Counted from the stretch's first letter, positions 6,372 to 59,241 are shown. The stretch: DNA of 64,000 nt from Escherichia coli (GCF_024298765.1 NZ_CP101210.1), one strand, 5' to 3'. Numbers and translations: made by a program. Notes: generated by a model from the letters alone, not told the origin.

Positions 6372-6392
6372 CTGATCTCTCCTTTTGACGTT

Positions 6393-37877: not shown

Positions 37878-37879
37878 TT
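37870..37879. repeat. island left junction direct repeat (att core) tgcttgggtt
   Basis: Identical 10-mer recurs at 48754-48763 at the other E junction. Confidence 0.8.
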
Positions 37880-38013
37880 ACATGAGTCAAATATGAAAGG
37901 ATGTGAATGATTTGATTACGTTTTAGCTATAGAATTGAAATGGAAAATCCTTGAATGCAATACAACGTGCAATACATGGATGAAAACCATCACTCATTTA
38001 ACAAGAGGAATCT

Positions 38014-38919
38014 ATGCGCTCACCCAACAGAATGCATGAACGCTCAACATTTTATAAGTATATGTCGTTGAATACCGCGAAGATTGTTCTTGATTCATGC
38101 AGCCTTAGATGGAGTTCTCCGGTCCTATTTAATGACCCTTTTGATGTTCCAAGAGAAGTTATGCCTGGTATTAACGAAATTAATATTGGCAAAGCTTTAG
38201 CCCGCAAGTTAATAGCGGAGTTGATTACCCCCAGAGAAGACATACAAAATTTAAACCCTAGAATTAGAACAATGCTAAGTGATTTCCAAAAGTCATTTCC
38301 TTTAGGCATACCCGCAGGATTAATTGAAAGATTTCAAGAAATGGTAAACATTCCACCAGTTGGGATTGGCGCTCCTGCGGCAATACAAGAAATGAAAGAT
38401 ATCTGGCGAGGAATGCTTAATAACAGAAGGATTTTGTGTTTATCTGAGAGCCCTATAATCACTCCTATGTGGAATCACTATGCCGATAAATATAAAGGTA
38501 TAGTTATCGAATTTGATTGTGTAGACTTTCTGGATAGCGCTTGGTTAATAGCCAAACCTATGAAATACACAGATGAAATGCCTCTAACTCACACTGCTGA
38601 AGGGATGGCCGAGTTGCTTTTCATGCCAGACAATAAGTCAATTGAATATATCAATAATGAGATAATATTCATAAAAACAGAAGAATGGGCATATGAAAGA
38701 GAGTGGAGAATTTCAACCTACGCTAGGCCAAATAGCACTGGTCAATATAGCGACTTAAAATTTCACCCTTTTGAGTTAAAATCTGTAATACTTGGTCCTC
38801 TTTTTGATGCCAGCGAGTTCGATGAAGTCGCATCACTAGTTAAAATGTATCCAAGAGCGAAATTATTTAAAAGTTCATTTGGGAACGACAGAAAAATATC
38901 CATAGTACCACTACCTTAA
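38014..38919 (+). CDS. hypothetical protein, DUF2971-like (low-GC cargo gene)
   Basis: 301-aa ORF with GAGGA RBS; motifs FYKY...LRWSSPVLFNDPFD, MWNHYADKYKGIVIEFD, EREWRI recalled as DUF2971-like; family assignment from memory only. Confidence 0.6.
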   Translation: MRSPNRMHERSTFYKYMSLNTAKIVLDSCSLRWSSPVLFNDPFDVPREVMPGINEINIGKALARKLIAELITPREDIQNLNPRIRTMLSDFQKSFPLGIPAGLIERFQEMVNIPPVGIGAPAAIQEMKDIWRGMLNNRRILCLSESPIITPMWNHYADKYKGIVIEFDCVDFLDSAWLIAKPMKYTDEMPLTHTAEGMAELLFMPDNKSIEYINNEIIFIKTEEWAYEREWRISTYARPNSTGQYSDLKFHPFELKSVILGPLFDASEFDEVASLVKMYPRAKLFKSSFGNDRKISIVPLP

Positions 38920-38949
38920 AAGGTCAAATGCTTTTGACAAATAAAATCT

Positions 38950-38976
38950 ATCGCCAGTTTTACTGGCGACTTTTAA
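38950..38976 (+). terminator. hairpin terminator between convergent DUF2971-like gene and Nu1-like gene
   Basis: cgccagttttactggcg stem-loop followed by cTTTTaa. Confidence 0.35.
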
Positions 38977-39025
38977 GCAACAAAGAACCACCTAAGCACT
39001 CTTCCTACCTATGGTTTCATTTGTT

Positions 39026-39577
39026 TTAACTTCGCTGATTATCCTTGATATACCTTTCAGCCATATCTGGAATGTTATCTGAGATCTGGTAAGCTCGAAT
39101 AAATGCTTTACTGACCTCCATCTTAATGAAGTCCTGATACCGTTTTTCCATGCCAGGAAACTGTCGACAGATCGCAAGTGGAAGACTATCAATGATTGCT
39201 CCAACTTCCCCAGTTAATTTCGACAAGGCATAAGTCGCAAATGCAGTGTCAATTACCTCACCTGTTTCGCTGGCATTCTTCAGTTCCTGTGCGTCGGCCT
39301 GCGCACGCGTAAGTCGATGGCGTTCGTACTCAATAGTCCCTGGCTGGAGATCTGTCTCGCTGGCCTGCCGCAGTTCTTCAACTTCCCGGCGCAGCTTTTC
39401 GTTCTCAATTTCAGCATCCCTTTCGGCATACCATTTTATGACGGCGGCAGAGTCATAAAGCACCTCATTACCCTTGCCACCGCCTCGCAGAACGGGCATT
39501 CCCTGTTCCTGCCAGTTCTGAATGGTACGGATACTCGCACCGAAAATGTCAGCCAGCTGCTTTTTGTTGACTTCCAT
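39026..39577 (-). CDS. terminase small subunit homolog (Nu1-like chimera)
   Basis: 183 aa; residues 1-~103 essentially identical to the prophage Nu1 at 54397-54942 (winged-HTH cosB-binding domain), C-terminal ~80 aa diverged. Confidence 0.88.
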   Translation of the reverse strand: MEVNKKQLADIFGASIRTIQNWQEQGMPVLRGGGKGNEVLYDSAAVIKWYAERDAEIENEKLRREVEELRQASETDLQPGTIEYERHRLTRAQADAQELKNASETGEVIDTAFATYALSKLTGEVGAIIDSLPLAICRQFPGMEKRYQDFIKMEVSKAFIRAYQISDNIPDMAERYIKDNQRS

Positions 39578-39739
39578 TGTTCATTCCACGGACAAAAACA
39601 GAGAAAGGAAACGACAGAGGCCAAAAAGCTCGCTTTCAGCACCTGTCGTTTCCTTTCTTTTCAGGGGGTATTTTAAATAAAAACATTAAGTTACGACGAA
39701 GAAGAACGGAAACGCCTTAAACCGGAAAATTTTCATAAA

Positions 39740-39800
39740 TAGCGAAAATCCGCGCGCCTGACGCCCCGTAGCCTGTCAGATCGCCGGAAAGGACCCGCCA
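39740..39800. other. cos-like site of the island (variant cosN)
   Basis: Aligns to prophage cos at 55100-55165; the 12-mer equivalent to the cohesive end (39755-39766, cgcctgacgccc) differs at 5/12 positions from aggtcgccgccc. Confidence 0.7.
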
Positions 39801-39822
39801 GCCAGAGCGGGCCCTAATTTCA

Positions 39823-40206
39823 TCAACCAATCAGCTTATAGCGACCATCCCGTGCATTGCGGCGTACACGCTCAATCTTGAGGCATAGCGCCGCATCTGG
39901 CTTTTTTGGGACAGGTACGCGGCAATATTCAGAAGCGCGAGGAATATTATTTATCCAGTCGATCACTTCACTTAAATACCAGGCCTTACGCCCTTCCGTA
40001 ACCTGCACACGCTCCGGGAACTCTCCACTAGCCTCAAGGTTTAGCAGTGTACGCCGACTCAGGGTTGTAATTTCCATCACCTGATTCATATCAACAAGGC
40101 GCTCGCTTAAACACATTTTGTCAGCGATAGCTTTTAATTCCTCTACAGCTGGATTCGGGTACATCATTTCGGCAATTGGCTTAAGGTCATTGTAATCATT
40201 CTGCAT
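39823..40206 (-). CDS. AlpA/MerR-like HTH protein
   Basis: 127-aa ORF; central motif ITTLSRRTLLNLEASGEFPERVQVTEGRKAWYLSEVIDWIN resembles AlpA-family HTH. Confidence 0.6.
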   Translation of the reverse strand: MQNDYNDLKPIAEMMYPNPAVEELKAIADKMCLSERLVDMNQVMEITTLSRRTLLNLEASGEFPERVQVTEGRKAWYLSEVIDWINNIPRASEYCRVPVPKKPDAALCLKIERVRRNARDGRYKLIG

Positions 40207-40217
40207 TGTATCCCCCT

Positions 40218-40559
40218 TTACACACGAGCCAGCGGCTGAACAGAAATACCTGAGCCAACAAACGCTGCAATCTTTACTGACAGTTCTTTTACAGACTCAG
40301 GCCAGTTCAGAGCATCAACATTTAAGACACCTGTCTTATAGACCTGAGCCTGTGTTTTTTTCGCGGTGTCGATTTGTACAGCGGAAACATAAACCGCTTT
40401 ACCTACGCTCGAACCATCCCATACCACCAGTGCACCTGTTGCATCTTCCTGCATCAGTGGCGTAAATGCAGGAATTACCCCTTTATTAGCTGAAAATATC
40501 CCCAGCGTAGTCACCAGTGCTTCAGTGCCAGCCATGAGTTCAGTGTAATGAGTAGCCAT
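40218..40559 (-). CDS. head decoration protein, gpD-like (divergent)
   Basis: 113 aa; shared pattern with lambda D (TPLM...WDG...YK.G...WPE...AF.G..IS) at ~30% identity. Confidence 0.7.
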   Translation of the reverse strand: MATHYTELMAGTEALVTTLGIFSANKGVIPAFTPLMQEDATGALVVWDGSSVGKAVYVSAVQIDTAKKTQAQVYKTGVLNVDALNWPESVKELSVKIAAFVGSGISVQPLARV

Positions 40560-40568
40560 TGCTCCCCC

Positions 40569-41615
40569 TTAGCCAATGCGAACGGTAACAAAACGATTGA
40601 TGCGGGCCGGTATTGGCTGTGGTGCTGAATGTGTCTGCACATATTCAATAGCCGGATCACCAGGCACAATATAGTTTTTCGGTGCAAGTTCGGCTTTAGT
40701 CAGCCCCATTCGGATTAGCTCCGGATCCTGAATACCGCCATAGGCGACAATCCCCTGAAGAGCCGTATTGCCAAGCACCATCAAATCAGGATCAAGGAAA
40801 TGTTTTTCAGTTCCGTCCTCGTCGGTATAACGCCCGCTGTATACAACAATCGCAACATCGCCCATATACCCTTTAAAACTCACCGAATCACCAAGGTCTT
40901 TAAGGGCCGTTTCCAGTTCGGAATTAGAGCCACGACGGGTATCCAGAGCCTCTTTTATCGCTCTGAATGAACGGTATTTCTTCCATACATTACCGCCCAT
41001 AATGATGATATTAGTGACGCCCTCACTAAATTCTGCGTAGCTCTCAATATCATCATTTGGATCAAAAGTTTCTTTATCCTTACCTGACCACTCAGCACCG
41101 CCAGACTGAGTGATGATATTTTGTGGTTTAATATTCCAGTCCAGCTCATAACGTTCAATACCATCGCCCTCAATGATATTTTTCCCCGTTGTGATTGCCT
41201 GAACGGCAAGCCATTCAATACGTGCACGAATAGATTTAGCCTGATTTACAATCGCCTGTTTAACTTTAATATTACGCGCTCCAAAAGCATTGTATTGCTC
41301 AGGTGATACACCAGCAGGGCGCACAGCTAACTTATTTGGATCAATGCTGCTTTTCGGCTTCATATAGCCTGGACGAATTGTTTTTGATTCGTACCCTTCG
41401 TCACGTGAAACTTTACTACCCACCATAGGAGAACAAAACGCTGCAATTGGGATATTTGGATCGTCGATTGTATCAAGAATAATATCGCGCGATTCAAACA
41501 TTACCGAGCGAGTAAAAAACAAACTGGTAAACAACGCATTTAGTTGTTTTTGTACATCTACAGCATTAACCACCTGTACAAGCTGGGTAGGCGAATATAA
41601 ATCAACCATACGCAT
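40569..41615 (-). CDS. major capsid protein, gpE-like (divergent)
   Basis: 348 aa from MRMVDLYSPTQL (RBS AAAGAGG); ~50% identity to prophage E over ITQSGG...DTRRGS.SELETA...GDVAIVVYSG...MVLGNT. Confidence 0.85.
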   Translation of the reverse strand: MRMVDLYSPTQLVQVVNAVDVQKQLNALFTSLFFTRSVMFESRDIILDTIDDPNIPIAAFCSPMVGSKVSRDEGYESKTIRPGYMKPKSSIDPNKLAVRPAGVSPEQYNAFGARNIKVKQAIVNQAKSIRARIEWLAVQAITTGKNIIEGDGIERYELDWNIKPQNIITQSGGAEWSGKDKETFDPNDDIESYAEFSEGVTNIIIMGGNVWKKYRSFRAIKEALDTRRGSNSELETALKDLGDSVSFKGYMGDVAIVVYSGRYTDEDGTEKHFLDPDLMVLGNTALQGIVAYGGIQDPELIRMGLTKAELAPKNYIVPGDPAIEYVQTHSAPQPIPARINRFVTVRIG

Positions 41616-41826
41616 CCTCTTTGCATTCATTAAAAATAATTGTGGATATATGCTATCACCGATATTTGTCATGCGAATACATGCAACCGAGTGCAATGTT
41701 GTATAAAGTTTTGGGATAACAACTTCAGCGCGGATAATTAGTGTTAATATCTTAACTCCCTTTGGTCGGGATTTATGTAGCATGCCGGAAAATTTATTTT
41801 TTTCCGGCCTTTTTTATTGGCAATAT

Positions 41827-42276
41827 TTAAAACGGAATATCATCTCCCCATTGCTCATTATCTCCCACTGGTGGATGGCTTCCTTGCTGATCTGCCTGTT
41901 GTTTTGCTCTGTTCAGTGCGTCAGTAGCCTGACCCTGTTGACCTTTTTTGCCGCCCGGTCGCACCGTTCGCGCACTGATTACGCTGTCTGCGATAACCTG
42001 CCAGCCCTGCCGCGTTTCACCGTTCTGTCCAGTCCACTGGCTCACCTGCATATTACCCGCCACGCTCAGGAGTTCGCCTTTGTGATGCTTTGCCAGCGCG
42101 TCGGCTTGTCTGCCAAACGCCAGGACAGATAACCACATCGTCGCCGTTCCGTCATCTGCCTGGCTGCATGGCAAAGATACCGCCATCCGTGCCAGTGTCA
42201 TGGGTGTTCCCTTGCTGGTATGTTTTACCTGTGGGTCGTCCACCAGCCGCCCGTAAGCTGCTATTTGCGCCGTCAT
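41827..42276 (-). CDS. ssb: single-stranded DNA-binding protein
   Basis: 149-aa ORF with OB-fold pattern, Gly/Gln-rich linker and acidic C-terminal tail ...GDDIPF. Confidence 0.8.
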   Translation of the reverse strand: MTAQIAAYGRLVDDPQVKHTSKGTPMTLARMAVSLPCSQADDGTATMWLSVLAFGRQADALAKHHKGELLSVAGNMQVSQWTGQNGETRQGWQVIADSVISARTVRPGGKKGQQGQATDALNRAKQQADQQGSHPPVGDNEQWGDDIPF

Positions 42277-42287
42277 GCTGCCTGCTC

Positions 42288-42530
42288 TCAGGACTTAATA
42301 TTGATGGTTGTCACTTCCTCCGCTTCGGCAATCTCCCGTTCGGTCAGCGTGGCAAAGTTTGCAGCCGCCGTTGTCATGAATGCGCTTATCAGTTCGGGAT
42401 GTGCTTTCGCGTATCCTTCCCCGGCGTTGCGGTCTATTGCCTTAATCGCCACCCTTAGCCAGTGTTCAGCCATATCAAGGGCGCGGTAATGTGGCTTTAT
42501 ATGTTTGTTCAGTTTTCCTGATGTGTGCAT
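42288..42530 (-). CDS. hypothetical protein
   Basis: 80-aa ORF in operon between origin and ssb. Confidence 0.5.
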   Translation of the reverse strand: MHTSGKLNKHIKPHYRALDMAEHWLRVAIKAIDRNAGEGYAKAHPELISAFMTTAAANFATLTEREIAEAEEVTTINIKS

Positions 42531-42559
42531 TTTTATTTTTACCCCCTCGTTTAAAAAGT

Positions 42560-42810
42560 TTTTTGTGCACCACCACCTTGTCTACCTTGTCTACCTGATT
42601 AGTTATCAGGCCAGTAATGGCGCGGGTTTCAGGGAGGTAGACAGCCCCAAATAGCTGTCTACCTCATCTCTACCCGTCTCCTTACCTGTCTACAAAAATG
42701 GGTAGATAAGGTAGATAACAGGTAGACAGTGAAAAATAGTTATCTACCTGCATTAATGCATTGAAATAAAAGTATTTTATTTCAGTCAGGTAGACAAGGT
42801 AGATAACCAT
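42560..42810. repeat. iteron cluster, putative island origin of replication
   Basis: >12 copies of GGTAGAYA / TRTCTACC in both orientations immediately downstream of the primase gene. Confidence 0.8.
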
Positions 42811-42819
42811 TGCCATTTT

Positions 42820-44571
42820 TTATAAAAACGCATCGCAATCATCAGTAGTCGTTGCGTTGGTCTGCGTGACTCCCTTAACTTTTCGCGTAATATATTCATA
42901 TCCGTAAACTTTCGCCGCTGACCTCATAGCCTTTCCGAACTCATTCACGCTCAAACATTTCCCCTTTCCTGTATATGCCATGAAGGCCATATAGACACGG
43001 TAAAGGCTGTTTCTGGTCGTGTACTTCACGGTGTCACCACCACCGCCCATCATTAGCCCACGAGCTTCCTCCAGAAACTCCAGCGCCGCGCAAAGCTCAA
43101 CAACCGGATCCGTTTGCTGCTTTATTGCCAGAGCTTCATCACCGTCACGCTGTTCCAGTAATAAAGCCCGTGCCTTTTCAGGGTCAGCAAAATTAGCCAG
43201 CAAGCGGCGGATAATTACGGGGATTTCTGCCGCTATCTTTTCCGGTAATTCCTTGTCTTTTTCGTCCTCCCTTACAATGTTGTCGAACCGGAAAATCACC
43301 CGACGGCGTGACACACCTCCGGCCCGTTCGGTAAAGATCATCGGGTCGTTATTGGTTGCCAGTACCACCGCCCTTATTATCGTCGTGAATCGCTTCTCAT
43401 ATTTCGGGTTAATTTCAACGGGATCGCCTCCCGTGATTTTCTTGATGCCCGTGCCTTCCCCCGTATATTTCGGCTGATCGGCAAGGACGATAAGACGACT
43501 CCCGACAACCTGCGCACGCCCTCCTGCATCATCGAGTGATGTCATCTCTGCGCTTACGGTGTTCTGTTTGCCAGCAAGCAGGGTGGCAATATGGGTAAAT
43601 GTACTCTTACCGCTTCCCCCGTCTCCGGTGGCCTCAATGAACATCTGCCAGTCGTACCGGTTCGCCATAATCATGTACAGCGCGGCACATATACGCATCA
43701 TCTTGCGCGGGTCTTTTCCGGCTGCGTGCTCAAGCCATTTATGAAAGTTTGGCGCGTTATCGCGGATGTTCTCCCCTGGTGCTGGTGGCGTGTACTCAAT
43801 GCCGTTGTGCGTGGTGATCCAGTTCTCCGGCGTGTGCGGGGAAAATTCCCCCGTTTTCAGGTCAAGCGCACCATTGGCGAACGGCAGCAAATCGCCGGAC
43901 GGCTCGCCCATTGGTTCGGCAATAACTTTTAACGCTTCAACGGCGTTATTGATCACGCGTTTGCTGAAAGTGGCCCTGTGCTCTGAATAGATCGCCACCA
44001 TTTCGCGGCTCAGCTCCATTGTGCTGATCGGACACCATACCCCGCCGCGCCATACGTGAACGATTTCACTTTCCGGATGCACACAAACGCCATCAAAGCG
44101 CTCGGCAAGCAGCTGCGCGCGCTCACTGTCTGCCATCTGTGAAAGTTGCGCCTTTTGCTTCGTCGGAAGATTAAGCACCAGGCTTTCCCCACGCTCGCAT
44201 TCCTCTTTGAGTCGCGGCAACTGGTCGGATAAATCCACTGGGCTGATGTCAGTAATCCCCGCGTATTCGTGTACGGTCTTCACTCCAGCCACAGCCAGTA
44301 ACGTAACAATCTGCGTCATGCTGTGCTCTGTGATATGTCCTGCGCGGTAAACACGCACACACTGACGATCTTCATCAATGATCCGGTAATCGGTGATGTT
44401 TTTCAGTTGCTCATCAGCCAACACGACAGGCGGCACATCGTCGGCGGCAATATGTTTACCCGCCCATTCCTGCCACTCTTTCGCATGGCTCCACGCATCA
44501 CTACCTGCAAAGATGATTATCTCTGTCAGTCTGTCGCGTGGCTGTTTTTTTAAGTTCGGTGCCAGTTTCAT
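42820..44571 (-). CDS. primase/helicase-like replication protein (P-loop NTPase, D5/P4-alpha-like)
   Basis: 583-aa ORF with Walker A GDGGSGKST and primase C-terminal-like region. Confidence 0.8.
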   Translation of the reverse strand: MKLAPNLKKQPRDRLTEIIIFAGSDAWSHAKEWQEWAGKHIAADDVPPVVLADEQLKNITDYRIIDEDRQCVRVYRAGHITEHSMTQIVTLLAVAGVKTVHEYAGITDISPVDLSDQLPRLKEECERGESLVLNLPTKQKAQLSQMADSERAQLLAERFDGVCVHPESEIVHVWRGGVWCPISTMELSREMVAIYSEHRATFSKRVINNAVEALKVIAEPMGEPSGDLLPFANGALDLKTGEFSPHTPENWITTHNGIEYTPPAPGENIRDNAPNFHKWLEHAAGKDPRKMMRICAALYMIMANRYDWQMFIEATGDGGSGKSTFTHIATLLAGKQNTVSAEMTSLDDAGGRAQVVGSRLIVLADQPKYTGEGTGIKKITGGDPVEINPKYEKRFTTIIRAVVLATNNDPMIFTERAGGVSRRRVIFRFDNIVREDEKDKELPEKIAAEIPVIIRRLLANFADPEKARALLLEQRDGDEALAIKQQTDPVVELCAALEFLEEARGLMMGGGGDTVKYTTRNSLYRVYMAFMAYTGKGKCLSVNEFGKAMRSAAKVYGYEYITRKVKGVTQTNATTTDDCDAFL

Positions 44572-44867
44572 TTTTTGCCCCTGAATGCGTTAATCATGCT
44601 TTTCATTTTCTGGATGTTTCCCCGCGCTTTTTCCCTGCTGATGGGCTTACTGCGGGGTGCGGCATATACCAGGGAAAAATCACGCCGGAACTGATAAACA
44701 GGCATCACGCAGTCATAGCTATACCCCTCACGACGGTAAGTGATGCGCCGTTCTGCCACGCCTTTAATCGTTACCGTGCCGCCGTATTTATCGCGGTAAA
44801 TATCGCCGTTCATAAATTCAGGCCGAGCGGGGCCGCTGGCAATAAAGCCAGAATTTTTCATTTCCAT
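44568..44867 (-). CDS. hypothetical protein
   Basis: 99-aa ORF overlapping primase start by 4 nt. Confidence 0.55.
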   Translation of the reverse strand: MEMKNSGFIASGPARPEFMNGDIYRDKYGGTVTIKGVAERRITYRREGYSYDCVMPVYQFRRDFSLVYAAPRSKPISREKARGNIQKMKSMINAFRGKK

Positions 44868-44884
44868 ATTATTTATTCCTCGAC

Positions 44885-45106
44885 TTAACTCGACTTATTT
44901 GATAGCTGGGCACTATTTATTGCGTCATTGAGTTTTTCTGCTGCTTCATCAATAAGTGACAACAGGCCATAAGCAATATTTGCATCTTCATTGTCATTTA
45001 TGCAATCAAGCCACATATTTAATATTGCTTTTGCTGAATTATTTAAAGTTAATGAACTTTCTGCACATGCTAACAATTTAAAAAAGACTTCCCGTTCTGT
45101 ATTCAT
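44885..45106 (-). CDS. hypothetical protein
   Basis: 73-aa low-GC ORF in the island leftward operon. Confidence 0.5.
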   Translation of the reverse strand: MNTEREVFFKLLACAESSLTLNNSAKAILNMWLDCINDNEDANIAYGLLSLIDEAAEKLNDAINSAQLSNKSS

Positions 45107-45298
45107 TTAATCCCCCACCAGCTTACTTTCTTCCTCAATCAAAAAACTAGCGACACTTCCCGAAAGACGCGCCAGTAGGCTCGCCAGTGCGGATATATCA
45201 GCATCTGTAATTTTGTTCGGGTATACCTCAAGAAGGCGGCAAATAATTTCTGTCTGGTGCGCACGTTCAGCGGCTTCGTGTAATGTGATTTCCTGCAT
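45107..45298 (-). CDS. hypothetical protein
   Basis: 63-aa ORF, start/stop abutting neighbours. Confidence 0.5.
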   Translation of the reverse strand: MQEITLHEAAERAHQTEIICRLLEVYPNKITDADISALASLLARLSGSVASFLIEEESKLVGD

Positions 45299-45483
45299 TA
45301 ATGCACCTCTTTTAATTCATACACTGCTGAAATAATGACTTGTGATAAGCCATATTCTGATGATTCGCTTCTCACCGCAGCAATAGCCGTCTGAACATTA
45401 ACAGCCTTCACATTCTGAGCGATACCAATTGTGTGGCCTATTGGGTTAACAGCTCGGGCAAATACACGGAAGGTTTTAAGCAT
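45298..45483 (-). CDS. hypothetical protein
   Basis: 61-aa ORF in operon. Confidence 0.5.
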   Translation of the reverse strand: MLKTFRVFARAVNPIGHTIGIAQNVKAVNVQTAIAAVRSESSEYGLSQVIISAVYELKEVH

Positions 45484-45673
45484 GACTCACTCCCTGGCGG
45501 ATTTTTGCAGCGAATACAGCAACACAACCGGACGGGCAACGGCTACGCGCTTCGCGTTCCGTCCAGGCGGTTACGTGGATGATTTGAGATTCTCCGGCAC
45601 TCAGTGCCAGAAAACGCCACACAAAGGCCGTTTGTGTGTGTACAAGGTGTGGTATATGATTTACAGCAACCAT
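45476..45673 (-). CDS. hypothetical small protein (first gene of leftward operon)
   Basis: 65 codons from internal ATG preceded by AGGAG at -7; rest of the 243-aa ORF-track call rejected. Confidence 0.35.
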   Translation of the reverse strand: MVAVNHIPHLVHTQTAFVWRFLALSAGESQIIHVTAWTEREARSRCPSGCVAVFAAKIRQGVSHA

Positions 45674-45764
45674 AACGGCTCCTAGTTTACGTTGTTGGTT
45701 AGACGCCCCGTATGTGTTCCCAGCACTGCGGGGCGTTGCTCTTTGTATTTCAACAATCCTTTCG

Positions 45765-45797
45765 GTGTGTTTCATGTTATGAGCGCATGAAACACAC
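45765..45797. promoter_or_regulatory. operator-like inverted repeat in divergent promoter region
   Basis: tgtgtttcatg-N9-catgaaacaca perfect 11-bp arms; third half-site tgaaacacac at 45832-45841. Confidence 0.6.
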
Positions 45798-45863
45798 GTC
45801 AAGGCTTTTTGTATTTCTTTTTTTGTGTATACTGAAACACACCGATGATTAGGAGTTTCAGAA

Positions 45864-46169
45864 ATGGCAACGGCTAACAAAAACGCAAAATCACAACTGA
45901 CAACTGTCAGAGTCCCACTAGATGTTATGCAAGGGATGGAATCCGTTAAGCTGGACGGTGAAAGCAATGCCGGATTTATCGTAACCGCCATGCGCGGTGA
46001 AATCGCCCGCCGCCAGGCAGAAGGAAGCGGAGAAAATCCCCTCGTGTCTTCACTGGATGCCTTAGCTAAGGTCGAACAAATCGGCATCAAGGCAGCGGAG
46101 GAAATCGGGCAACTCGTAGCCGTCGCTCGTGAAGAACTCCAGCGGCGTAAAGCCAAAGAATCTGAATAA
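45864..46169 (+). CDS. small DNA-binding protein, ribbon-helix-helix-like, putative island regulator
   Basis: 101-aa ORF with AGGAG RBS, divergent from the replication/packaging operon; N-terminus LTTVRVPLDVMQGMESV resembles RHH. Confidence 0.55.
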   Translation: MATANKNAKSQLTTVRVPLDVMQGMESVKLDGESNAGFIVTAMRGEIARRQAEGSGENPLVSSLDALAKVEQIGIKAAEEIGQLVAVAREELQRRKAKESE

Positions 46170-46519
46170 TTAGTATCAGCGCCGTGATGTGAGTAACTAC
46201 GGCGCATTGCTATGTAAATACTGGCAATAAACAGAAAAGGTAGTTCTACTCCGAATAATTTTATCTGACACTACTCCTGAACTAACATGCGCTTATCTTA
46301 CAGGATATAAATATAAATCCATAAAATCACGATTAAATAAAGTCGCTCCAAACATAAACCACACCCAACGCTTAACAAGATAGCAACAAACAGGTAAATA
46401 ACTTGCAGAAATATTTATCGCAAGGATTATCATTATTAATGACAAATCACTTTACCAAGTCATTCCCCTCTCTTATCATAAAGAGAAAGTAATAAATAAG
46501 TTAAGGGAGTTAGAATGCT

Positions 46520-47056
46520 ATGAATCTAAAAAAAATAGCCACAAACACAAAAAACAAGATAACAGAAACATTTAATAAACTTATATTAGAGGCATCTAAA
46601 ACCCCCACACAAGATGAAATTAAAATACTTGAGAGAAGGAGTAAGAAGTTTAATTACTCCTTTTTCTCATACGCAGTCACAGGAGCTATAATAGTTTTTT
46701 GCTCTCAACCATTAATTAAATACGCAAACCCAATACTTATTTTATTGAGTGGTCTGTTACTGTCTATCATCATTATCATTCTCAGAATGATTTATATTTC
46801 ACAAGCGAATGCATCATGGACAACCAAAAAACGCTCACATGTACTAGTTCATTTTCTTTCTGCATGTTTCATAGCATCAACATTGACGTTGCTATATCAG
46901 GCTTACGATAATAACATCACACACAAATTGTACTGTAAAAATATACAACAACTTATTGAAAAAAGGATAAAAACAGAAAAAAACATCAGCATATTCAGTG
47001 GGATGCAATGCACCCCGGTATATGATTACTCTTTATTTGGATTTAATCTCTTATAA
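46520..47056 (+). CDS. hypothetical membrane protein (very low GC cargo)
   Basis: 178-aa ORF with ~3 predicted TM helices; RBS GGGAG; AT-rich. Confidence 0.6.
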   Translation: MNLKKIATNTKNKITETFNKLILEASKTPTQDEIKILERRSKKFNYSFFSYAVTGAIIVFCSQPLIKYANPILILLSGLLLSIIIIILRMIYISQANASWTTKKRSHVLVHFLSACFIASTLTLLYQAYDNNITHKLYCKNIQQLIEKRIKTEKNISIFSGMQCTPVYDYSLFGFNLL

Positions 47057-47125
47057 AGAATGTTATTACTGATTTGAGTACAAATTCTCAAATCAGTAAT
47101 TCATAATATTTTATTCTGAGATAAT

Positions 47126-47362
47126 TTAAACTACCCACTCACCTCGAATCCATGCCTGCACTTCTGAAAGACGATATGCAACAGCAGTGGAACCAATCTT
47201 GATCCGCTTAGGAAATTTTCCTTCCTTCTCCAGCTTCCAGCGTGTGCTGTTCGCAAGAGTGGTTAGCTCCCGACATTCTTTCTCACGGATCATTCGGTCA
47301 ATGTTAGGAATGTACTCCAGACCCTTTTTATCAACAATTGCCATTTTTTTCATGTTAACCAA
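47126..47362 (-). CDS. alpA: AlpA-family transcriptional regulator/excisionase
   Basis: 78-aa ORF; motif ELTTLANSTRWKLEKEGKFPKRIKIGSTAVAYRLSEVQAWI; immediately downstream of int. Confidence 0.8.
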   Translation of the reverse strand: MVNMKKMAIVDKKGLEYIPNIDRMIREKECRELTTLANSTRWKLEKEGKFPKRIKIGSTAVAYRLSEVQAWIRGEWVV

Positions 47363-48590
47363 CCTTTTGTTTGAGGATTGTCACTTTTGAATCAGCACCT
47401 GCGATGCTATTGAGATATGTAGTCCAGAGTTCCAGAGCATCCAGTTTTTTAGCCATAAACTTACTCCGGTTGTAAACACCTGCCACGCCAGGTAGCGCAT
47501 GGCCTAACAGTTGTTCTACTACATAAAATTCAACACCGAGATCACTTAGATGAGTAGATAGCGTTCTTCTAAGGTCGTGTAGTGACCATTGTTTTTCATG
47601 GCCCAAACGTTTACCGATTTTCCCCCCAATCTTGCTTACGCTTTCTCTAATTCGCAGACTTCCCAGCACATAACCAGTATGTTTTGTCTCTTCGTGAACA
47701 TCCGTTACCCACTGTCGTAGAATTTCAGGTACTGGTCTGACGATTTCAACACCAGTTTTTGAGTGATCTTTTGGTACAGTCCAAACCCAACTTTCGAGAT
47801 CCCATTCGCTCCATTCTGATAATCGGGCTTCACTCATTCGACATCCAAATACTGTACAAAGCACAAACATTTTTCGCGTGTATTCAGACATTAGTTTTAA
47901 ATCAGGCTCGACAAAAATTGCCTTCCAGAGCTGGCCGAGTTCGGCTTCATCCAGAACCCGATCCCGCTTACCTGCAATCTGCCCCACATCACTCATGCGC
48001 AAATCCTTTAAAGCATCACACGTCGCGTACTGGCGTACCCGACAAAAACGAAGAGCTAATTTAGTGTCAGAAAAAACATACGCCGCCATAACTGGTGCAT
48101 TACGTTTAATTCGGTCAAAACAGTCCAGCCATTCATATAGGTGAGTGTCATTTACGGGCAAATGACCGATATAGGGAAAGATATGCTTTCGAAATCTGCC
48201 AAGCGTTACAGCATGAGTTTTACGACGCACCTTACAGTAATTTTCATACCAGTAATTTAGTGCATCCTCCACTGTAACTGGCTTTAAGCGTTCTTCAGCC
48301 TGAATCTTAATCTGGATACGCGGATCACGTTTGTCAGCCAACCAACCACGGCACTCGTCGCGCTTTTCCCTTGCCTGTTTGAGTGACATATCAGGATATT
48401 TACCCAACGTTAGCCAGACCGGAGCAGCCCGGCCACCTGCTAACCTGTAGAAGAAAACAAAGCTCACAGCCCCTTTAGTACTCACACGAATAGAAAGCCC
48501 CTTTCCATCAGCAATGGTGATCTGCTTTTCTCTGGGTTTCCCCAGATATCCTTTAAGCGCTTTGTCGCTCAGTTTGTTCTCGCCAGCCAT
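47355..48590 (-). CDS. int: tyrosine site-specific integrase (P4-type)
   Basis: 411 aa from MAGENKLSDKALKGY; catalytic R...HDLRRT...LLGH...Y motifs; adjacent to right island junction. Confidence 0.9.
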   Translation of the reverse strand: MAGENKLSDKALKGYLGKPREKQITIADGKGLSIRVSTKGAVSFVFFYRLAGGRAAPVWLTLGKYPDMSLKQAREKRDECRGWLADKRDPRIQIKIQAEERLKPVTVEDALNYWYENYCKVRRKTHAVTLGRFRKHIFPYIGHLPVNDTHLYEWLDCFDRIKRNAPVMAAYVFSDTKLALRFCRVRQYATCDALKDLRMSDVGQIAGKRDRVLDEAELGQLWKAIFVEPDLKLMSEYTRKMFVLCTVFGCRMSEARLSEWSEWDLESWVWTVPKDHSKTGVEIVRPVPEILRQWVTDVHEETKHTGYVLGSLRIRESVSKIGGKIGKRLGHEKQWSLHDLRRTLSTHLSDLGVEFYVVEQLLGHALPGVAGVYNRSKFMAKKLDALELWTTYLNSIAGADSKVTILKQKVG

Positions 48591-48752
48591 TTTTAGCCCC
48601 AAAAAGCAATACAAGCTGCAATACAGAGATGATTGCAACACACAGATAACGAGGAAAATTCAGTGAAAGCACCAGATAAACTTATTCTTTATTATCAAAA
48701 GATTAAGTGTAAAAACCAGCAACTACACGAAAGCCTCAGAAAGCCATGCTAA

Positions 48753-48998
48753 GTGCTTGGGTTTGACATATCCCGGCGTAAATTCAGAGGTGGAGCCGCC
48801 ACGGGAACGGATAACCTCACCGGAAACAATCGGCGAAACGTACAGCGCCATGTTTACCAGTCCCGGAATTTGTGAGAGATAGACTTTCTCCGTAGTGAAG
48901 GGATAGCTCTCACGGAAAAAGAGACGCAGAAACAGCGGATCAAACTTAAATTTCTGCTCATTTGCCGCCAGCAGCTGGGCGGTTGTGTACATCGACAT
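48753..48998 (-). pseudogene. E: major capsid protein E, N-terminal portion (82 codons) truncated by island
   Basis: MSMYTTAQLLAANEQKFKFDPLFLRL...GYVKPKH then island-derived LAWLSEAFV and stop. Confidence 0.9.
48754..48763. repeat. island right junction direct repeat (att core) tgcttgggtt
   Basis: Identical to 37870-37879. Confidence 0.8.
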
Positions 48999-50715: not shown

Positions 50716-54396
<3,681 letters not shown>

Positions 54397-54422
<26 letters not shown>

Positions 54423-54942
54423 TCAGCAACCCCGGTATCAGTTCATCCAGCGCGGCTGCTTTGTTCATAGCTTTGATGATATCCCGTTTCAGGAAATCAA
54501 CATGTCGGTTTTCCAGTTCCGGAAAACGCCGCTGCACCGACAGGGGGATCCCGTCGAGAATACTGGCAATTTCACCTGCGATCCGCGACAGCACGAAAGT
54601 ACAGAATGCGGTTTCCACCACTTCAGCTGAGTCTCTGGCATTCTTCAGTTCCTGTGCGTCGGCCTGCGCACGCGTAAGTCGATGGCGTTCGTACTCAATA
54701 GTCCCTGGCTGCAGATCTGTCTCGCTGGCCTGCCGCAGTTCTTCAACTTCCCGGCGCAGCTTTTCGTTCTCAATTTCAGCATCCCTTTCGGCATACCATT
54801 TTATAACGGCGGCAGAGTCATAAAGCACCTCATTACCCTTGCCACCGCCTCGCAGAACGGGCATTCCCTGTTCCTGCCAGTTCTGAATGGTACGGATACT
54901 CGCACCGAAAATGTCAGCCAGCTGCTTTTTGTTGACTTCCAT
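54397..54942 (-). CDS. Nu1: terminase small subunit Nu1
   Basis: 181-aa ORF matching lambda Nu1 end to end. Confidence 0.95.
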
Positions 54943-55099
54943 TGTTCATTCCACGGCCAAAAACAGAGAAAGGAAACGACAAAGGCCCAAAAGTTCGTTT
55001 TCAGCACCTGTCGTTTCCTTTCTTTTCAGGGGTTATTTTAAATAAAAACATTAAGTTACGACGAAGAAGAACGGAAACACCTTAAACCGGAAAATTTTC

Positions 55100-55165
55100 A
55101 TAAATAGCAAAAACCCGCGAGGTCGCCGCCCCGTAACCTGTCGGATCGCCGGAAAGGACCCGTAA
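55100..55165. other. prophage cos site (cosN cohesive-end 12-mer at 55120-55131)
   Basis: aggtcgccgccc = reverse complement of lambda cohesive end GGGCGGCGACCT; flanking sequence matches lambda left/right ends. Confidence 0.9.
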
Positions 55166-55330
55166 AGTGATAATGATTATCATCTACATATCACAACGTG
55201 CGTGGAGGCCATCAAACCACGTCAAATAATCAATTATGACGCAGGTATCGTATTAATTGATCTGCATCAACTTAACGTAAAAACAACTTCAGACAATACA
55301 AATCAGCGACACTGAATACGGGGCAACCTC

Positions 55331-55525
55331 ATGTCAACGAAGAACAGAACCCGCAGAACAACAACCCGCAACATCCGCTTTCCTAACCAAATGATTGAAC
55401 AAATTAACATCGCTCTTGAGCAAAAAGGGTCCGGGAATTTCTCAGCCTGGGTCATTGAAGCCTGCCGTCGGAGACTAACGTCAGAAAAGAGAGCATATAC
55501 ATCAATCCAGAGTGATGATGAATAA
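55331..55525 (+). CDS. hypothetical protein of lambda right end
   Basis: 64-aa ORF in sequence matching the lambda genome right end. Confidence 0.7.
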   Translation: MSTKNRTRRTTTRNIRFPNQMIEQINIALEQKGSGNFSAWVIEACRRRLTSEKRAYTSIQSDDE

Positions 55526-55886
55526 ACATCCCGGTTTCTTCCACCATCGCACCGGAAAAGCGACTATGAGGGTAACCCTGCGTCTGTCAGCACAGTAAAA
55601 CCCGGTGTGCATCGTTTTTGATTATTCCCGCACACTCACGCAGAAGGAATTCCCCGTCGGGCTACGGTCATGGTTAATGCGGGAATACGGCGACGATACA
55701 GCGCAGCTAAAAGGGTAATGGACAGAAAGAGCGGTTTATTTCATTCCACAGGATTCTGAGTGCCCCCCCCTCCTCCAATAGGCTGAGCATCCACCTATAT
55801 AGTTTTAATTTTCATCAATCCATTTAACTATCGTTTAATTGTTGTCACATAGGATTCTGCCGTTTTTAACAATGCAGGATAATAAG

Positions 55887-56180
55887 ATGAAAAAAATGTT
55901 GTTTTCTGCCGCTCTGGCAATGCTTATTACAGGATGTGCTCAACAGACGTTTACTGTTGGAAACAAACCGACAGCAGTAACACCAAAGGAAACCATCACC
56001 CATCATTTCTTCGTTTCGGGAATTGGACAGGAGAAAACTGTTGATGCAGCCAAAATTTGTGGCGGCGCAGAAAATGTTGTTAAAACAGAAACCCAGCAAA
56101 CATTCGTAAATGGATTTCTCGGTTTTATTACTTTAGGCATTTATACTCCGCTGGAAGCGCGTGTGTATTGCTCACAATAA
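55887..56180 (+). CDS. bor: Bor lipoprotein (serum-resistance, Iss-like)
   Basis: 97 aa from MKKMLFSAALAMLITGCAQ (lipobox); matches lambda Bor. Confidence 0.92.
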   Translation: MKKMLFSAALAMLITGCAQQTFTVGNKPTAVTPKETITHHFFVSGIGQEKTVDAAKICGGAENVVKTETQQTFVNGFLGFITLGIYTPLEARVYCSQ

Positions 56181-56211
56181 TTGCATGAGTTGCCCATAGA
56201 TATGGGCAGCT

Positions 56212-56673
56212 CTATCTGCACTGCTCATTAATATACTTCTGGGTTCCTTCCAGTTGTTTTTGCATAGTAATCAGCCTCTCTCTGAGGGTGAAATAATCCC
56301 GTTCAGCGGTGTCTGCCAGTCGGGGGGAGGCTGCATTATCCACGCCGGAGGCGGTGGTGGCTTCACGCACTGACTGACAGACTGCTTTGATGTGCAACCG
56401 ACGACGACCAGCGGCAACATCATCACGCAGAGCATCATTTTCAGCTTTCGCATCAGCTAACTCCTTCGTGTATTTTGCATCGAGCGCAGCAACATCACGC
56501 TGACGCATCTGCATGTCAGTAATTGCCGCGTTCGCCAGCTTCAGTTCTCTGGCATTTTTGTCGCGCTGGGCTTTGTAGGTAATGGCGTTATCACGGTAAT
56601 GATTAACAGCCCATGACAGGCCGACGATGATGCAGATAACCAGAGCGGAGATAATCGCGGTTACTCTGTTCAT
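56212..56673 (-). CDS. Rz: i-spanin Rz
   Basis: 153 aa from [17 protein letters not shown], matches lambda Rz. Confidence 0.93.
56271..56453 (-). CDS. Rz1: o-spanin Rz1 (embedded in Rz, +1 frame)
   Basis: 60-aa lipoprotein ORF ...[23 protein letters not shown]... inside Rz. Confidence 0.9.
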
Positions 56674-57167
56674 TGCTGACCCCACAAACAGATTTCACGC
56701 TCAATCTCACGACGAGTCATGAGACCTTTCCATTGCTTACCGCCAGCATATGTCCAGCGACGTAGCTGATCACATGCGCCTTTAATATCACCCTGGTTTA
56801 TTTTGCGAAGAAGCGTCGATGTTCTGAAATTGCCAGCACCCACGTTGTAGACGAACGAGTAAAGAGCGCCGCGCGTTGTTTCCGGTATATCGACTTTGAT
56901 GTACGGGTTAATTTGTCTGGCGACAGTGGCAAGGTCTTTATTCAGGAGGGCTTTGCACTCTGCTTCGGTATACGTTTTACCGGGAATGATGTCTTTTCCT
57001 GTATGCCCGTGACATACAGTCCATACACCAACTATGTCTTTGTAAGGATTATGTCTCACACCTTCCAGACCATCGTTACCACTTGGGCCAGTGATTAATA
57101 CAGATGCTATAGCAATAGCCCCGCCACCAATAGCAGCAGCAACAGCTTTTCGTAATGATGGAGGCAT
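56670..57167 (-). CDS. R: SAR endolysin (phage 21 R-type lysozyme)
   Basis: 165-aa ORF with N-terminal signal-anchor-release domain and T4-lysozyme-like catalytic region. Confidence 0.92.
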
Positions 57168-57382
57168 TATCCACCTCTCGCAGCCTTGCGCTTATCTTCT
57201 TTAATCTTGAAATAAAGGTTTGTCAGGTACGTCAGCAGGCCAAATACCAGGCTACCCAGCACTCCAATTGCCGCCCACTGTGAGGGCGTGACTTTATCTA
57301 GCAGCTGTAAAAACCAGTACCCGGCACTACCTGCTGAGGTGCCATAGGCGACACCCGTTGTTAACTTATCCATGGATTTCAT
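57167..57382 (-). CDS. S: pinholin S (phage 21 type)
   Basis: 71-aa two-[31 protein letters not shown]... Confidence 0.9.
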
Positions 57383-57493
57383 AACCCCACCTCGCAGACA
57401 AAGCGGGTGTAAATTGAGGGAATACTACGAAACGTAACAGACTCGGAGTCAGTGAATAACTCAGGTATTGGGTTATCAGCTAATATCGAGACT

Positions 57494-57526
57494 CAAAAAA
57501 TGGAAAAACCCGCTCGACGGCGGGTT
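57494..57526 (-). terminator. rho-independent terminator upstream of S (tR'-like position)
   Basis: cccgccgtcgagcggg hairpin followed by TTTTTCCATTTTTT on the minus strand. Confidence 0.5.
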
Positions 57527-57954
57527 TAAGCTGTGTGACGAAGTAACCACTCTTAACAGCATAACCAATTTTTTACGTACGTAAACCACTAAATGATATT
57601 TGCGAGAATGCTACCGAGTATTGAAAACACCACTACAAATACATAAGCAAATCTCAACAAATAACCAACAAATAATTTCCAGTGTTATTTTTAGCTGGTT
57701 TAAATTGAACCTTCAAATTATAGAGCACTTATAAATAACAGCCGTTAATATAAATTGGCTAACAGATTTATTTTTATTCAGCCAAGAGCCATGAATAGGA
57801 TTCGATAGAAAAAAGTTCAGATAAAAATAGAGATCTACTTCACAAATCAAACGAGAAACCAAAACTTACATCTTGAAATAATCACATTGATTAGATGAAT
57901 ATTTATCGCGCAGTGACATCATTTTTTAATAATAGTTCAAAAAAAGGGCTCACG

Positions 57955-59052
57955 ATGAAAAAATTAACAGTGGCAATTTCTGCTGTAGCTGCATCAGTAC
58001 TGATGGCGATGTCTGCTCAGGCAGCTGAAATTTATAATAAAGACAGTAACAAGCTGGATCTGTACGGGAAAGTTAATGCTAAGCACTACTTCTCCTCTAA
58101 TGATGCAGATGATGGTGATACTACTTATGCCCGTCTTGGCTTCAAAGGTGAAACCCAAATCAACGATCAACTGACTGGTTTCGGTCAGTGGGAATATGAA
58201 TTCAAAGGCAACCGCGCTGAATCTCAAGGTTCCTCCAAAGATAAAACCCGTCTTGCCTTCGCTGGCCTGAAATTCGGTGACTACGGCTCCATCGATTACG
58301 GCCGTAACTACGGTGTAGCATACGACATCGGTGCGTGGACTGACGTCCTGCCAGAATTCGGTGGTGACACTTGGACTCAAACCGACGTGTTCATGACTCA
58401 ACGTGCAACTGGTGTTGCAACCTATCGTAACAACGACTTCTTTGGTCTGGTTGATGGTCTGAATTTTGCTGCTCAGTACCAAGGCAAAAACGATCGTAGC
58501 GATTTCGATAACTACACTGAAGGTAACGGTGATGGCTTCGGTTTCTCTGCTACCTATGAATACGAAGGATTCGGTATCGGTGCAACTTATGCGAAATCTG
58601 ATCGTACCGACACTCAAGTTAATGCAGGGAAAGTTCTTCCTGAAGTATTTGCTTCCGGTAAAAATGCAGAAGTTTGGGCCGCAGGTCTGAAATATGACGC
58701 TAACAACATTTACCTGGCCACTACCTATTCTGAAACCCAGAATATGACTGTATTTGCTGATCACTTCGTTGCTAATAAAGCCCAAAACTTCGAAGCTGTT
58801 GCACAATATCAGTTCGATTTCGGTCTGCGTCCGTCCGTTGCTTACCTGCAATCTAAAGGTAAGGATCTTGGAGTATGGGGCGATCAGGACTTAGTCAAAT
58901 ATGTTGATGTAGGTGCAACCTATTACTTCAACAAAAATATGTCTACTTTCGTTGATTACAAAATCAACCTGCTTGACAAAAATGACTTCACTAAAGCACT
59001 CGGTGTAAGCACTGATGACATCGTTGCTGTAGGTCTGGTTTACCAGTTCTAA
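57955..59052 (+). CDS. nmpC: OmpC-family outer membrane porin (NmpC/Lc-type phage moron)
   Basis: 365 aa from [23 protein letters not shown] signal peptide; porin ending in VYQF; inserted between Q and lysis genes on the opposite strand. Confidence 0.92.
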
Positions 59053-59189
59053 TCTGATTACGAAAAAGATATGTTGCGGGAGGCGTTGCCTCCCCAACAT
59101 ATAAGTGGCTCCCTCAAGCCACTTCCTTTAGAAGCACAACCTTGCTTCTAACTATATAAACCTTCTGTTATATATTACCCTTTATTTTT

Positions 59190-59216
59190 GGGGGCGTCTC
59201 AACGCCCCATTTTTAA
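59190..59216 (+). terminator. rho-independent terminator downstream of porin gene
   Basis: gggggcgtctcaacgcccc hairpin followed by ATTTTT. Confidence 0.6.
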
Positions 59217-59241
59217 TAATTTTTAGTAAACAATTGGCATA

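Follow-up and report, generated by a model that had tools for sequence, protein, structure and literature searches.

A DLP12 (qsr')-type late regulation and lysis module with an intact nmpC porin gene in a lambda-family prophage of Escherichia coli

The window analyzed here, a 64,000-nucleotide stretch of the Escherichia coli genome GCF_024298765.1 (NZ_CP101210.1), carries a prophage in the attachment site used by lambda, with ybhC on one side and the bio operon on the other. Our subject is the segment 55887-59216 of this prophage with its immediate flanks, which holds bor, the lysis genes S, R and Rz/Rz1 and an nmpC porin gene, and is bordered by cos on one side and the late antiterminator gene Q on the other. 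Very probably the prophage belongs to the lambda family and is largely intact, the segment is its end for late regulation and lysis, and the late module that it carries is of the type known from DLP12 (qsr'), the cryptic prophage of E. coli K-12. Phage transcription follows the minus strand of the window, with the head genes coming after Nu1. Between Q and S, a 1.65-kb spacer contains the porin gene on the plus strand. The features of the locus, and the Lom-family gene of the tail region, are the following.

54397-54942, minus strand: Nu1, terminase small subunit, the first late-operon gene past cos (179/181 residues identical to lambda Nu1, 180/181 to DLP12 NohD)
55131/55132: cos junction, lambda coordinate 1/48502 (blastn against lambda)
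55331-55525, plus strand: ylcI-like DUF3950 gene between cos and bor (Pfam DUF3950, 2e-20; NCBIfam YlcI_YnfO_N, 1.6e-09; 62/64 to DLP12 YlcI)
55887-56180, plus strand, opposite to the late genes: bor/iss outer-membrane lipoprotein gene (Pfam Lambda_Bor, 3.7e-30)
56212-56673, minus strand: Rz, inner-membrane spanin subunit (Pfam Phage_lysis, 2.8e-54; 151/153 to lambda Rz)
56271-56453, minus strand: Rz1, outer-membrane lipoprotein spanin subunit, inside Rz in another frame (Pfam Rz1, 2.9e-20)
56670-57167, minus strand: R, signal-anchor-release (SAR) endolysin of the phage 21/RrrD type (Pfam Phage_lysozyme, 4.1e-47)
57167-57382, minus strand: S, class II pinholin/antiholin of the S21 family, EssD subtype (Pfam "Bacteriophage P21 holin S", PF04971, 2e-35)
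57495-57527, minus strand: tR'-like intrinsic terminator upstream of S, hairpin AAACCCGC...GCGGGTTT followed by a T-run (terminator scan; alignment with 933W)
57537-57585, minus strand: putative Q-dependent pR' with qut-equivalent (homology to 933W)
57906-57938, minus strand: possible sigma-E-type promoter of the lysis cassette, GAACTA-N16-TCACT, with +1 near 57906 (proposed from reading the sequence)
57745-57954, plus strand: porin promoter region PnmpC (98-99% identical to DLP12)
57955-59052, plus strand: intact nmpC porin gene, precursor of 365 amino acids (Pfam Porin_1, 4.7e-157)
59053-59216, plus strand: structured porin 3' untranslated region (3'UTR) ending in an intrinsic terminator, probable equivalent of the small RNA (sRNA) IpeX (RNA folding; terminator scan)
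59242-59625, minus strand: Q, late antiterminator of the QuuD type, convergent with the porin gene (Pfam Phage_antitermQ, 4e-53)
24610-25209, minus strand: Lom-family outer-membrane protein gene (Pfam Ail_Lom, 3.9e-121)

Every gene named in a preliminary description of this segment is an intact open reading frame (ORF), as judged by ORF calls and Pfam, and the limits given there fit to the nucleotide. The segment opens with the ATG of bor (55887), as in the PGAP annotation of a genome identical over window 55000-60300, and closes where the T-run behind the porin terminator hairpin (59191-59208) ends (59216). None of bor, Rz, Rz1, S and Q matched an NCBIfam family. A tRNA scan of 54000-61000 found no tRNA genes, and an Rfam scan of 54900-60400 at E-values up to 1 found no sRNA family, its single match being a chance hit to a plant microRNA (18.4 bits against a gathering score of 60 bits).

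The order and orientation of the genes are those of DLP12 (rusA-ylcG-quuD-nmpC::IS5-essD-rrrD-rzpD/rzoD-borD). Identity to DLP12 is 96.7% from bor to nmpC and 99.3% over the 3' end of nmpC, quuD, ylcG and rusA, and YlcG is the same at 46/46 residues. The locus thus has both the gene order of a DLP12/qsr'-type late module and a blastn identity of 96.7-99.3% that is continuous apart from IS5. It differs from DLP12 in that nmpC is free of IS5, R is slightly nearer to phage 21 in part of the gene, and ybcV and ybcW, which occupy the interval from bor to cos in DLP12, are absent. The module is moreover joined to a near-complete lambda-like prophage, whereas DLP12 is a decayed remnant.

Resemblance to other lambdoid phages is more partial. 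Lambda shares cos, Nu1, Rz, Rz1 and the rightmost 411 bp (94.6-98.9%) as well as the logic of a Q-dependent late operon with holin, endolysin and spanin, but its Q, S and R belong to other families (13-23%) and it has no porin gene. The lysis cassette of phage 21 is collinear over S, R, Rz/Rz1 and bor, with an S of the same class and dual start. Upstream of S, however, phage 21 has Q21, pR', a terminator, two tRNA genes and no porin, whereas our locus has a porin and no tRNA genes; the Nu1/cos of phage 21 is of a different specificity (51.6%) and Q21 is unrelated (23.5%). The Q of 933W is 78% identical, and the two loci can be aligned over the -35 hexamer, the initial transcribed region and the terminator hairpin. 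The 933W promoter overlaps the 3' end of Q, while here 1.65 kb with an opposite-strand porin cassette lies between Q and the putative promoter. Both 933W and phage 21 carry tRNA genes between tR' and S; there are none here.

The junctions were mapped by blastn against lambda, phage 21 (complete genome OL657228), DLP12 of MG1655, 434B and mEp332, with identity taken in 150-bp steps. The right end and cos (54901-55500) are 95-100% identical to lambda. The region upstream of bor and the 5' part of the gene (55501-55950) is 93-100% identical to phage 21, 99-100% to 434B and 77-84% to lambda, and the rest of bor with Rz/Rz1 is common to all compared phages at 94-99%. For R the nearest relative is phage 21 (94-98%), and S is 97-100% identical to DLP12 as against 75-81% to phage 21. 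From S through the porin gene to Q, ylcG and rusA (57151-60300) identity to DLP12 is 97-100%, rising to 98-100% beyond 57450. Lambda homology runs as far as 56673 (lambda 45966), where Rz begins, and so ends exactly at the R/Rz border. Phage 21 homology (55597-57383, 94.5%) ends at the start codon of S. Both junctions therefore coincide with borders between genes, the usual pattern in lambdoid phages. DLP12 homology (55833-60296, 96.7-99.3%) is unbroken save for the IS5 of K-12. Between bor and the right end, about 1.28 kb of lambda (46810-48091) is represented here by about 290 bp.

These identities make it highly probable that the region arose through the kind of module exchange that is ordinary among lambdoid phages, with a lambda-like cos and right end, a phage-21-like segment from bor to R and a DLP12-like segment from S through Q to rusA. 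The preliminary description had presented the late region as a mosaic of lambda and phage 21; the mosaicism is borne out, but the list of two relatives is incomplete, because the block from S to rusA is 97-100% DLP12. The likeness to lambda holds as described for Nu1 (179/181), for Rz and Rz1 (151/153 and 59/60) and for the right end (95-100%). The head, which had been called lambda-identical, is not: nucleotide identity is 98.1% in the head and 95.4% in the tail, and gene E is split by a 10.9-kb insert.

S is identical to DLP12 EssD at 70/71 residues and to S21 at 60/71. Against lambda S a global alignment gives 22% identity, which is no meaningful alignment. The protein covers 63/64 positions of the Pfam P21 holin S profile and so belongs to that family. 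Its N-terminus, MKSMDK, is the same as in S21, and the dual start at Met1 and Met4 (motif MKSM) is kept; the phage 21 record annotates two products of S, the antiholin S71 and the holin S68. By analogy, S would act as a pinholin, forming small pinholes that depolarize the membrane without letting the endolysin pass.

R is identical to R21 and to RrrD at 158/165 residues each and to lambda R at 23% (global alignment). A phmmer search of the PDB aligned residues 1-165 with the structures 4ZPU of RrrD (2.2e-107) and 3HDE of R21 (8.5e-107). The N-terminal 37 residues, the Gly/Ala-rich SAR segment, are identical to the solved R21/RrrD, and aligned with 3HDE the protein retains E35, D44 and T50. We take these three residues to be the catalytic Glu-Asp-Thr triad in R21 numbering. 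Judged by its sequence, R is a GH24 lysozyme with an N-terminal SAR domain of the R21 type. Pfam, phmmer, the identities and the dual start thus agree with the earlier assignment of S and R to the pinholin and SAR endolysin types of phage 21, and alignment with the lambda proteins, at 22% for S and 23% for R, leads us to reject the lambda type for both. Rz1 is identical to its phage 21 counterpart at 60/60 residues and to that of lambda at 59/60, and its translation contains the lipobox VVGC. It lies wholly within Rz on the same strand and in a different frame, the arrangement of a two-component embedded spanin.

Q is identical to DLP12 QuuD over its full length (127/127), with 78% identity to Q933W, 23.5% to Q21 and 13% to lambda Q. 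A sensitive search of the 572-bp spacer between the porin gene and S showed that, outside the DLP12 group, only 57586-57504 is conserved, and that this block matches hundreds of Shiga toxin (Stx) phages. The matching segment of 933W overlaps the end of Q and is annotated as pR', qut and terminator. The -35 hexamer TTTACG (57585-57580) is shared with the 933W pR' (TTTACG-N16-TATCAT), and the -10 hexamer is TATGCT here (57563-57558) and TATCAT in 933W. A qut-equivalent follows at 57544-57537, and the initial transcribed region and terminator hairpin are also conserved in the alignment. The terminator scan independently predicted the tR' hairpin at 57527-57506. On this homology we place a putative pR'/qut at about 57585-57537 and a putative tR' at 57527-57495, so that the porin gene would sit between Q and the late promoter, outside the late transcript.

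Lambda, phage 21 and 933W all have their late promoter directly after Q or overlapping its end. If the same held here, pR' would lie directly downstream of Q and the late transcript would run antisense through the whole porin gene; the hairpin at 59191-59208, which has a T-run on the plus strand only, would not stop transcription of the minus strand. We regard this arrangement as very improbable and reject it, because the block homologous to the pR', qut and terminator of 933W (57586-57504) lies between the porin gene and S and not beside Q. A promoter scan also found no promoter-like site on the minus strand in the 189 bp that separate Q from the porin gene, and the published DLP12 lysis-operon fragment begins within the 5' end of nmpC and heads toward S.

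That published reporter fragment is given as "-121 to +650". Its forward primer, Pdlp12Fw (published start -121), maps to 58027-58008 on the minus strand, so the published +1 would fall near 57906; its reverse primer has no match in the window within two mismatches. A sigma-E-like sequence, GAACTA-N16-TCACT (57938-57906, minus strand), lies at this point, divergent from the porin gene and about 520 nt upstream of S, and fits the reported control of the DLP12 cassette by RpoE. Regulation of the DLP12 lysis module by RpoE and Hha, and an effect on the production of outer-membrane vesicles, have been reported (PMC7918800). If the sigma-E-like promoter is real, the lysis genes would come under host envelope-stress control. 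Since both candidate starts lie between the porin ATG and S, the coding region of the porin would be outside the late transcript in either case.

The porin is identical at 365/365 residues to K-12 NmpC rebuilt in silico without IS5. Pfam Porin_1 covers it at 337/337 profile positions, and the NCBIfam OmpC subfamily model scores 529.8 bits (cutoff 484). Residues 24-365 align end to end with crystal structures of mature OmpC, down to the C-terminal YQF. The gene thus encodes a complete precursor of the NmpC/OmpD/Lc subgroup of general diffusion porins, with a signal peptide, a 16-stranded general porin and a C-terminal Phe, and contains no frameshift, stop or insertion sequence. The end-to-end OmpC alignment and the identity to NmpC exclude a pseudogene, and the full 365-codon ORF, with the whole Porin_1 profile covered, shows none of the inactivating mutations that would have refuted the preliminary description. 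Sound, too, was its account of a complete porin gene with its own terminator, inserted on the opposite strand between Q and S as in DLP12.

The 210 bp upstream of the porin ATG are 98-99% identical to DLP12 of K-12. The corresponding 199-210 bp before nmpC in K-12 hold a sigma-70 promoter shown by experiment to be active, with sites for Crp, OmpR, IHF and MprA (PMC11677980). At the other end of the gene, the 164-nt 3'UTR folds into three hairpins and the terminator with a predicted energy of -62.9 kcal/mol (z = -9.5; 0/200 shuffled sequences were as stable), and 58951-59250, which includes it, is 100% identical to DLP12. IpeX is a 167-nt DLP12 RNA that is processed from the porin transcript and is reported to regulate, or lower, OmpC (PMC12197685). 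It is not modeled in Rfam. By its length and position, the 3'UTR is probably the IpeX equivalent.

Bor is identical to the phage 21 protein at 95/97 residues, to lambda Bor at 88/97 and to DLP12 BorD at 87/97. Its translation contains the lipobox LITGC, so the protein has both a Lambda_Bor match and a lipoprotein signal. The preliminary description had bor match lambda closely; the allele is closer to that of phage 21. An identical Bor protein is called Iss by PGAP in a genome that is identical over window 55000-60300, and membership of the family would imply a role in serum resistance. Among 675 plasmid records with a bor match, 582 are just 80-90% identical at the DNA level, and the best matches look like chromosomal prophage copies filed as plasmids; we therefore reject the equation of this allele with plasmid ColV-type iss. 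The Lom-family gene is 45% identical to lambda Lom and retains the conserved C-terminal end of the beta-barrel, making it a divergent allele and not the lom of lambda. All three genes are intact and match their Pfam families, and the gene content proposed earlier, with Lom, Bor and the porin as three envelope genes in one prophage, stands. Lying outside the putative late transcript, the plus-strand nmpC and bor/iss cassettes could, by analogy, be expressed in the lysogen.

The working of the module after induction can be outlined by homology to studied systems, from which every step is drawn. A QuuD-type Q would be made from the early rightward transcript and would load onto RNA polymerase at pR'/qut (about 57585-57537, minus strand). 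The polymerase would then pass the tR' hairpin (57527-57495) and continue into S, R and Rz/Rz1, over cos and into the head and tail genes. Once triggered, the S pinholin, with its dual-start antiholin, would depolarize the inner membrane. Depolarization would free the membrane-tethered SAR endolysin R, which would take up its active fold and degrade the wall, and the outer membrane would then be disrupted by the Rz/Rz1 spanin. The nmpC cassette between Q and pR' would have its own CRP/OmpR-regulated promoter, a structured 3'UTR equivalent to IpeX and a terminator. Together with bor/iss, downstream of Rz, and the Lom-family gene of the tail region, nmpC would make up a set of three outer-membrane conversion genes.

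The insert in gene E bears on whether this prophage can run such a program. Gene E is split at lambda 6372-6379 by 10.9 kb of low GC content (window 37880-48753), which has the orientation of the late genes and a 10-bp repeat, AACCCAAGCA, on either side (37870-37879 and 48754-48763). Besides a single-stranded DNA-binding protein (SSB), an AlpA-like regulator, a full Nu1 homolog with a lambda-type cos region and one cargo gene, it contains:

47355-48641: satellite integrase
42820-44571: satellite D5-type primase
40569-41783: satellite E-like capsid gene
40218-40559: satellite D-like decoration gene

A helper-embedded phage-inducible chromosomal island (PICI) of the type 11capE has been described at the site E:Phage_cap_E:80 (codon 80 of gene E) with a 10-bp identity block (PMC10111431). 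The insert matches this published type, and we reject its reading as a new element. The satellite with its flanks occurs in 50/5426 complete E. coli genomes.

Several points weigh against the account given so far. A scan for sigma-70 consensus sequences (four hits, against a mean of 9.4 in shuffled sequence) flagged neither pR' nor PnmpC, and the promoters were for this reason placed by homology instead. The assignment of pR' in turn leans on features of 933W that are themselves annotated as putative. The published +1 of DLP12 appears to lie farther upstream, at about 57906, so more than one promoter may feed the cassette. That the lysogen expresses the porin, bor and lom is argued from analogy, and an intact nmpC can be silent, to go by the title of a cited paper, which speaks of a "quiescent" porin gene in E. 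coli BE. Finally, with the satellite in gene E, the prophage makes no major capsid protein of its own, and phage production depends on excision of the satellite or on the satellite's E homolog.

The last point could suggest that, as with DLP12 of K-12, only a remnant is left, domesticated or cryptic, whose lysis cassette no longer serves phage release and which the host would use under sigma-E, Hha or Q for envelope turnover, vesicles or biofilm. The 97-100% identity of the block from S to Q to cryptic DLP12 would fit such a role, as would the reported RpoE and Hha regulation of the DLP12 lysis module with its effect on vesicle production (PMC7918800) and the conservation of the sigma-E-like sequence near 57938-57906. 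We nevertheless consider it unlikely. The surrounding prophage is essentially full length, with replication, nin, head and tail genes 95-99% identical to lambda, int and xis are present at the lambda att site in the genome identical over 55000-60300, and the sequenced phage mEp332 has a module 98.6% identical to this one. What interrupts E, moreover, is a satellite that inserted site-specifically between copies of a 10-bp repeat, so that excision can undo it. The reading of the lysis module as part of a largely intact lambda-family prophage is unchanged by the satellite.

A further question is whether the porin is an active conversion gene or a passenger, intact yet transcriptionally quiescent in the lysogen. 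Besides the precedent of the E. coli BE gene, quiescence would agree with the reported repression of the nmpC promoter by OmpR, IHF and MprA (PMC11677980) and with the lack of a strong sigma-70 consensus upstream of the porin in the consensus scan. On the other hand, PnmpC of K-12 drives a detectable nmpC-IS5 fusion mRNA and controls IS5 transposition (PMC11677980), the promoter region here is 98-99% identical to it, and the porin gene encodes the K-12 protein without a single change (365/365). Quiescence therefore seems to us the less probable state, though a real contender. A more elaborate scheme, in which the nmpC-3'UTR cassette acts as a regulated porin swap that is shut off on induction by antisense early rightward transcription from Q, is improbable. 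Its porin-swap half has already been suggested for the DLP12 porin transcript and IpeX (PMC12197685), and only the antisense coupling would be new. If the scheme were true, OmpC and OmpF of the lysogen would be replaced by NmpC by way of the IpeX-like 3'UTR, excluding phages and colicins that depend on OmpC or OmpF, and the position of the cassette between Q and pR' would be functionally meaningful and not accidental.

The satellite and the other end of the prophage gave some separate observations. The cargo slot beside the cos/Nu1 end of the satellite (37890-39540) is variable; here its ORF 38014-38919 (plus strand) encodes a DUF2971 protein matching the PADLOC candidate defense family PDC-S31 (1.8e-32). 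In E. coli strain 104, which departs from our sequence in this slot alone across window 35433-64000 and is otherwise almost identical (its coordinates, aligned from window 35433 onward, are offset by 433 bp from ours), the slot holds DUF262 and HEPN-domain genes. It looks like a hotspot for defense genes. The satellite's copy of the lambda cos/Nu1 region (39026-39797), the second in the prophage, matches lambda 13-528 at 96.5% over 39240-39754. Its Nu1-family ORF is full-length, at 183 amino acids, with a C-terminal third that has no detectable nucleotide similarity to lambda, and the satellite may provide a small terminase subunit of its own that recognizes cos of the lambda type. Direct and inverted repeats containing AGGTAGA, at 42635-42810 just downstream of the satellite primase gene, are probably its replication origin. 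A sister PICI at NZ_OZ547155.1 1697393-1707223 has the same gene order (int, HTH, Icd-like, DUF4222, primase, SSB, capsid, decoration, HTH and small terminase, HTH denoting helix-turn-helix) and lies at a chromosomal site between clpS and cspD. Because its integrase differs, the comparison suggests that the integrase redirects this PICI family into prophage gene E. Between the right attachment site of the prophage and the tail-fiber genes, the lambda b region is replaced (window 17000-20500, approximately). Window 17081-17296 matches lambda 27741-27528, including the attP core, at 85.7%, and the annotation of strain 104 lists transposase fragments, an AraC-family regulator and IS1 in the replacement, at positions that are approximate.

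The late module itself is common. The whole 5.3-kb block from cos to rusA (55000-60300) occurs in the lambdoid phages mEp332 (98.6%), Turner, PhiR34_1, ev243 and 434B (94-98.6% across the group), with Turner, PhiR34_1, ev243 and others at 94-97%, and these phages annotate the same genes: a porin (OmpD/NmpC), an RrrD-type lysozyme, holin S, Rz and Q. Phage 434B carries the IS5-interrupted copy of K-12, whereas the other phages of the group differ by point changes only. Its record marks the block as a region of non-homology to 434 and ylcG as a crossover point, which we read as acquisition by recombination with DLP12. Counting genomes with at least 80% of the block in one place, we found it in 2034/5426 complete E. 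coli genomes (about 37%). It is at least 99% identical in 63 records, and many of those listed are avian or human isolates. With sequenced phages and more than one in three complete E. coli genomes carrying this block, the arrangement is already known and widespread, and the late and lysis module is an ordinary, previously described lambdoid type.

As a discovery, then, the locus matters little: it is a textbook DLP12/qsr' late region on a lambda-like prophage. It does offer a clean example of lambdoid mosaic junctions at gene borders, one between R and Rz and one at the start codon of S. The bor allele is one that is annotated as iss, a marker of serum survival in the typing of avian and extraintestinal E. 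coli, and prophage copies of bor/iss can confuse such marker-based typing. The cassette of nmpC and a probable ipeX is naturally free of IS5 and resides in a probably inducible prophage, which would make it suitable for testing whether the phage porin and its 3'UTR remodel the porins of the host.

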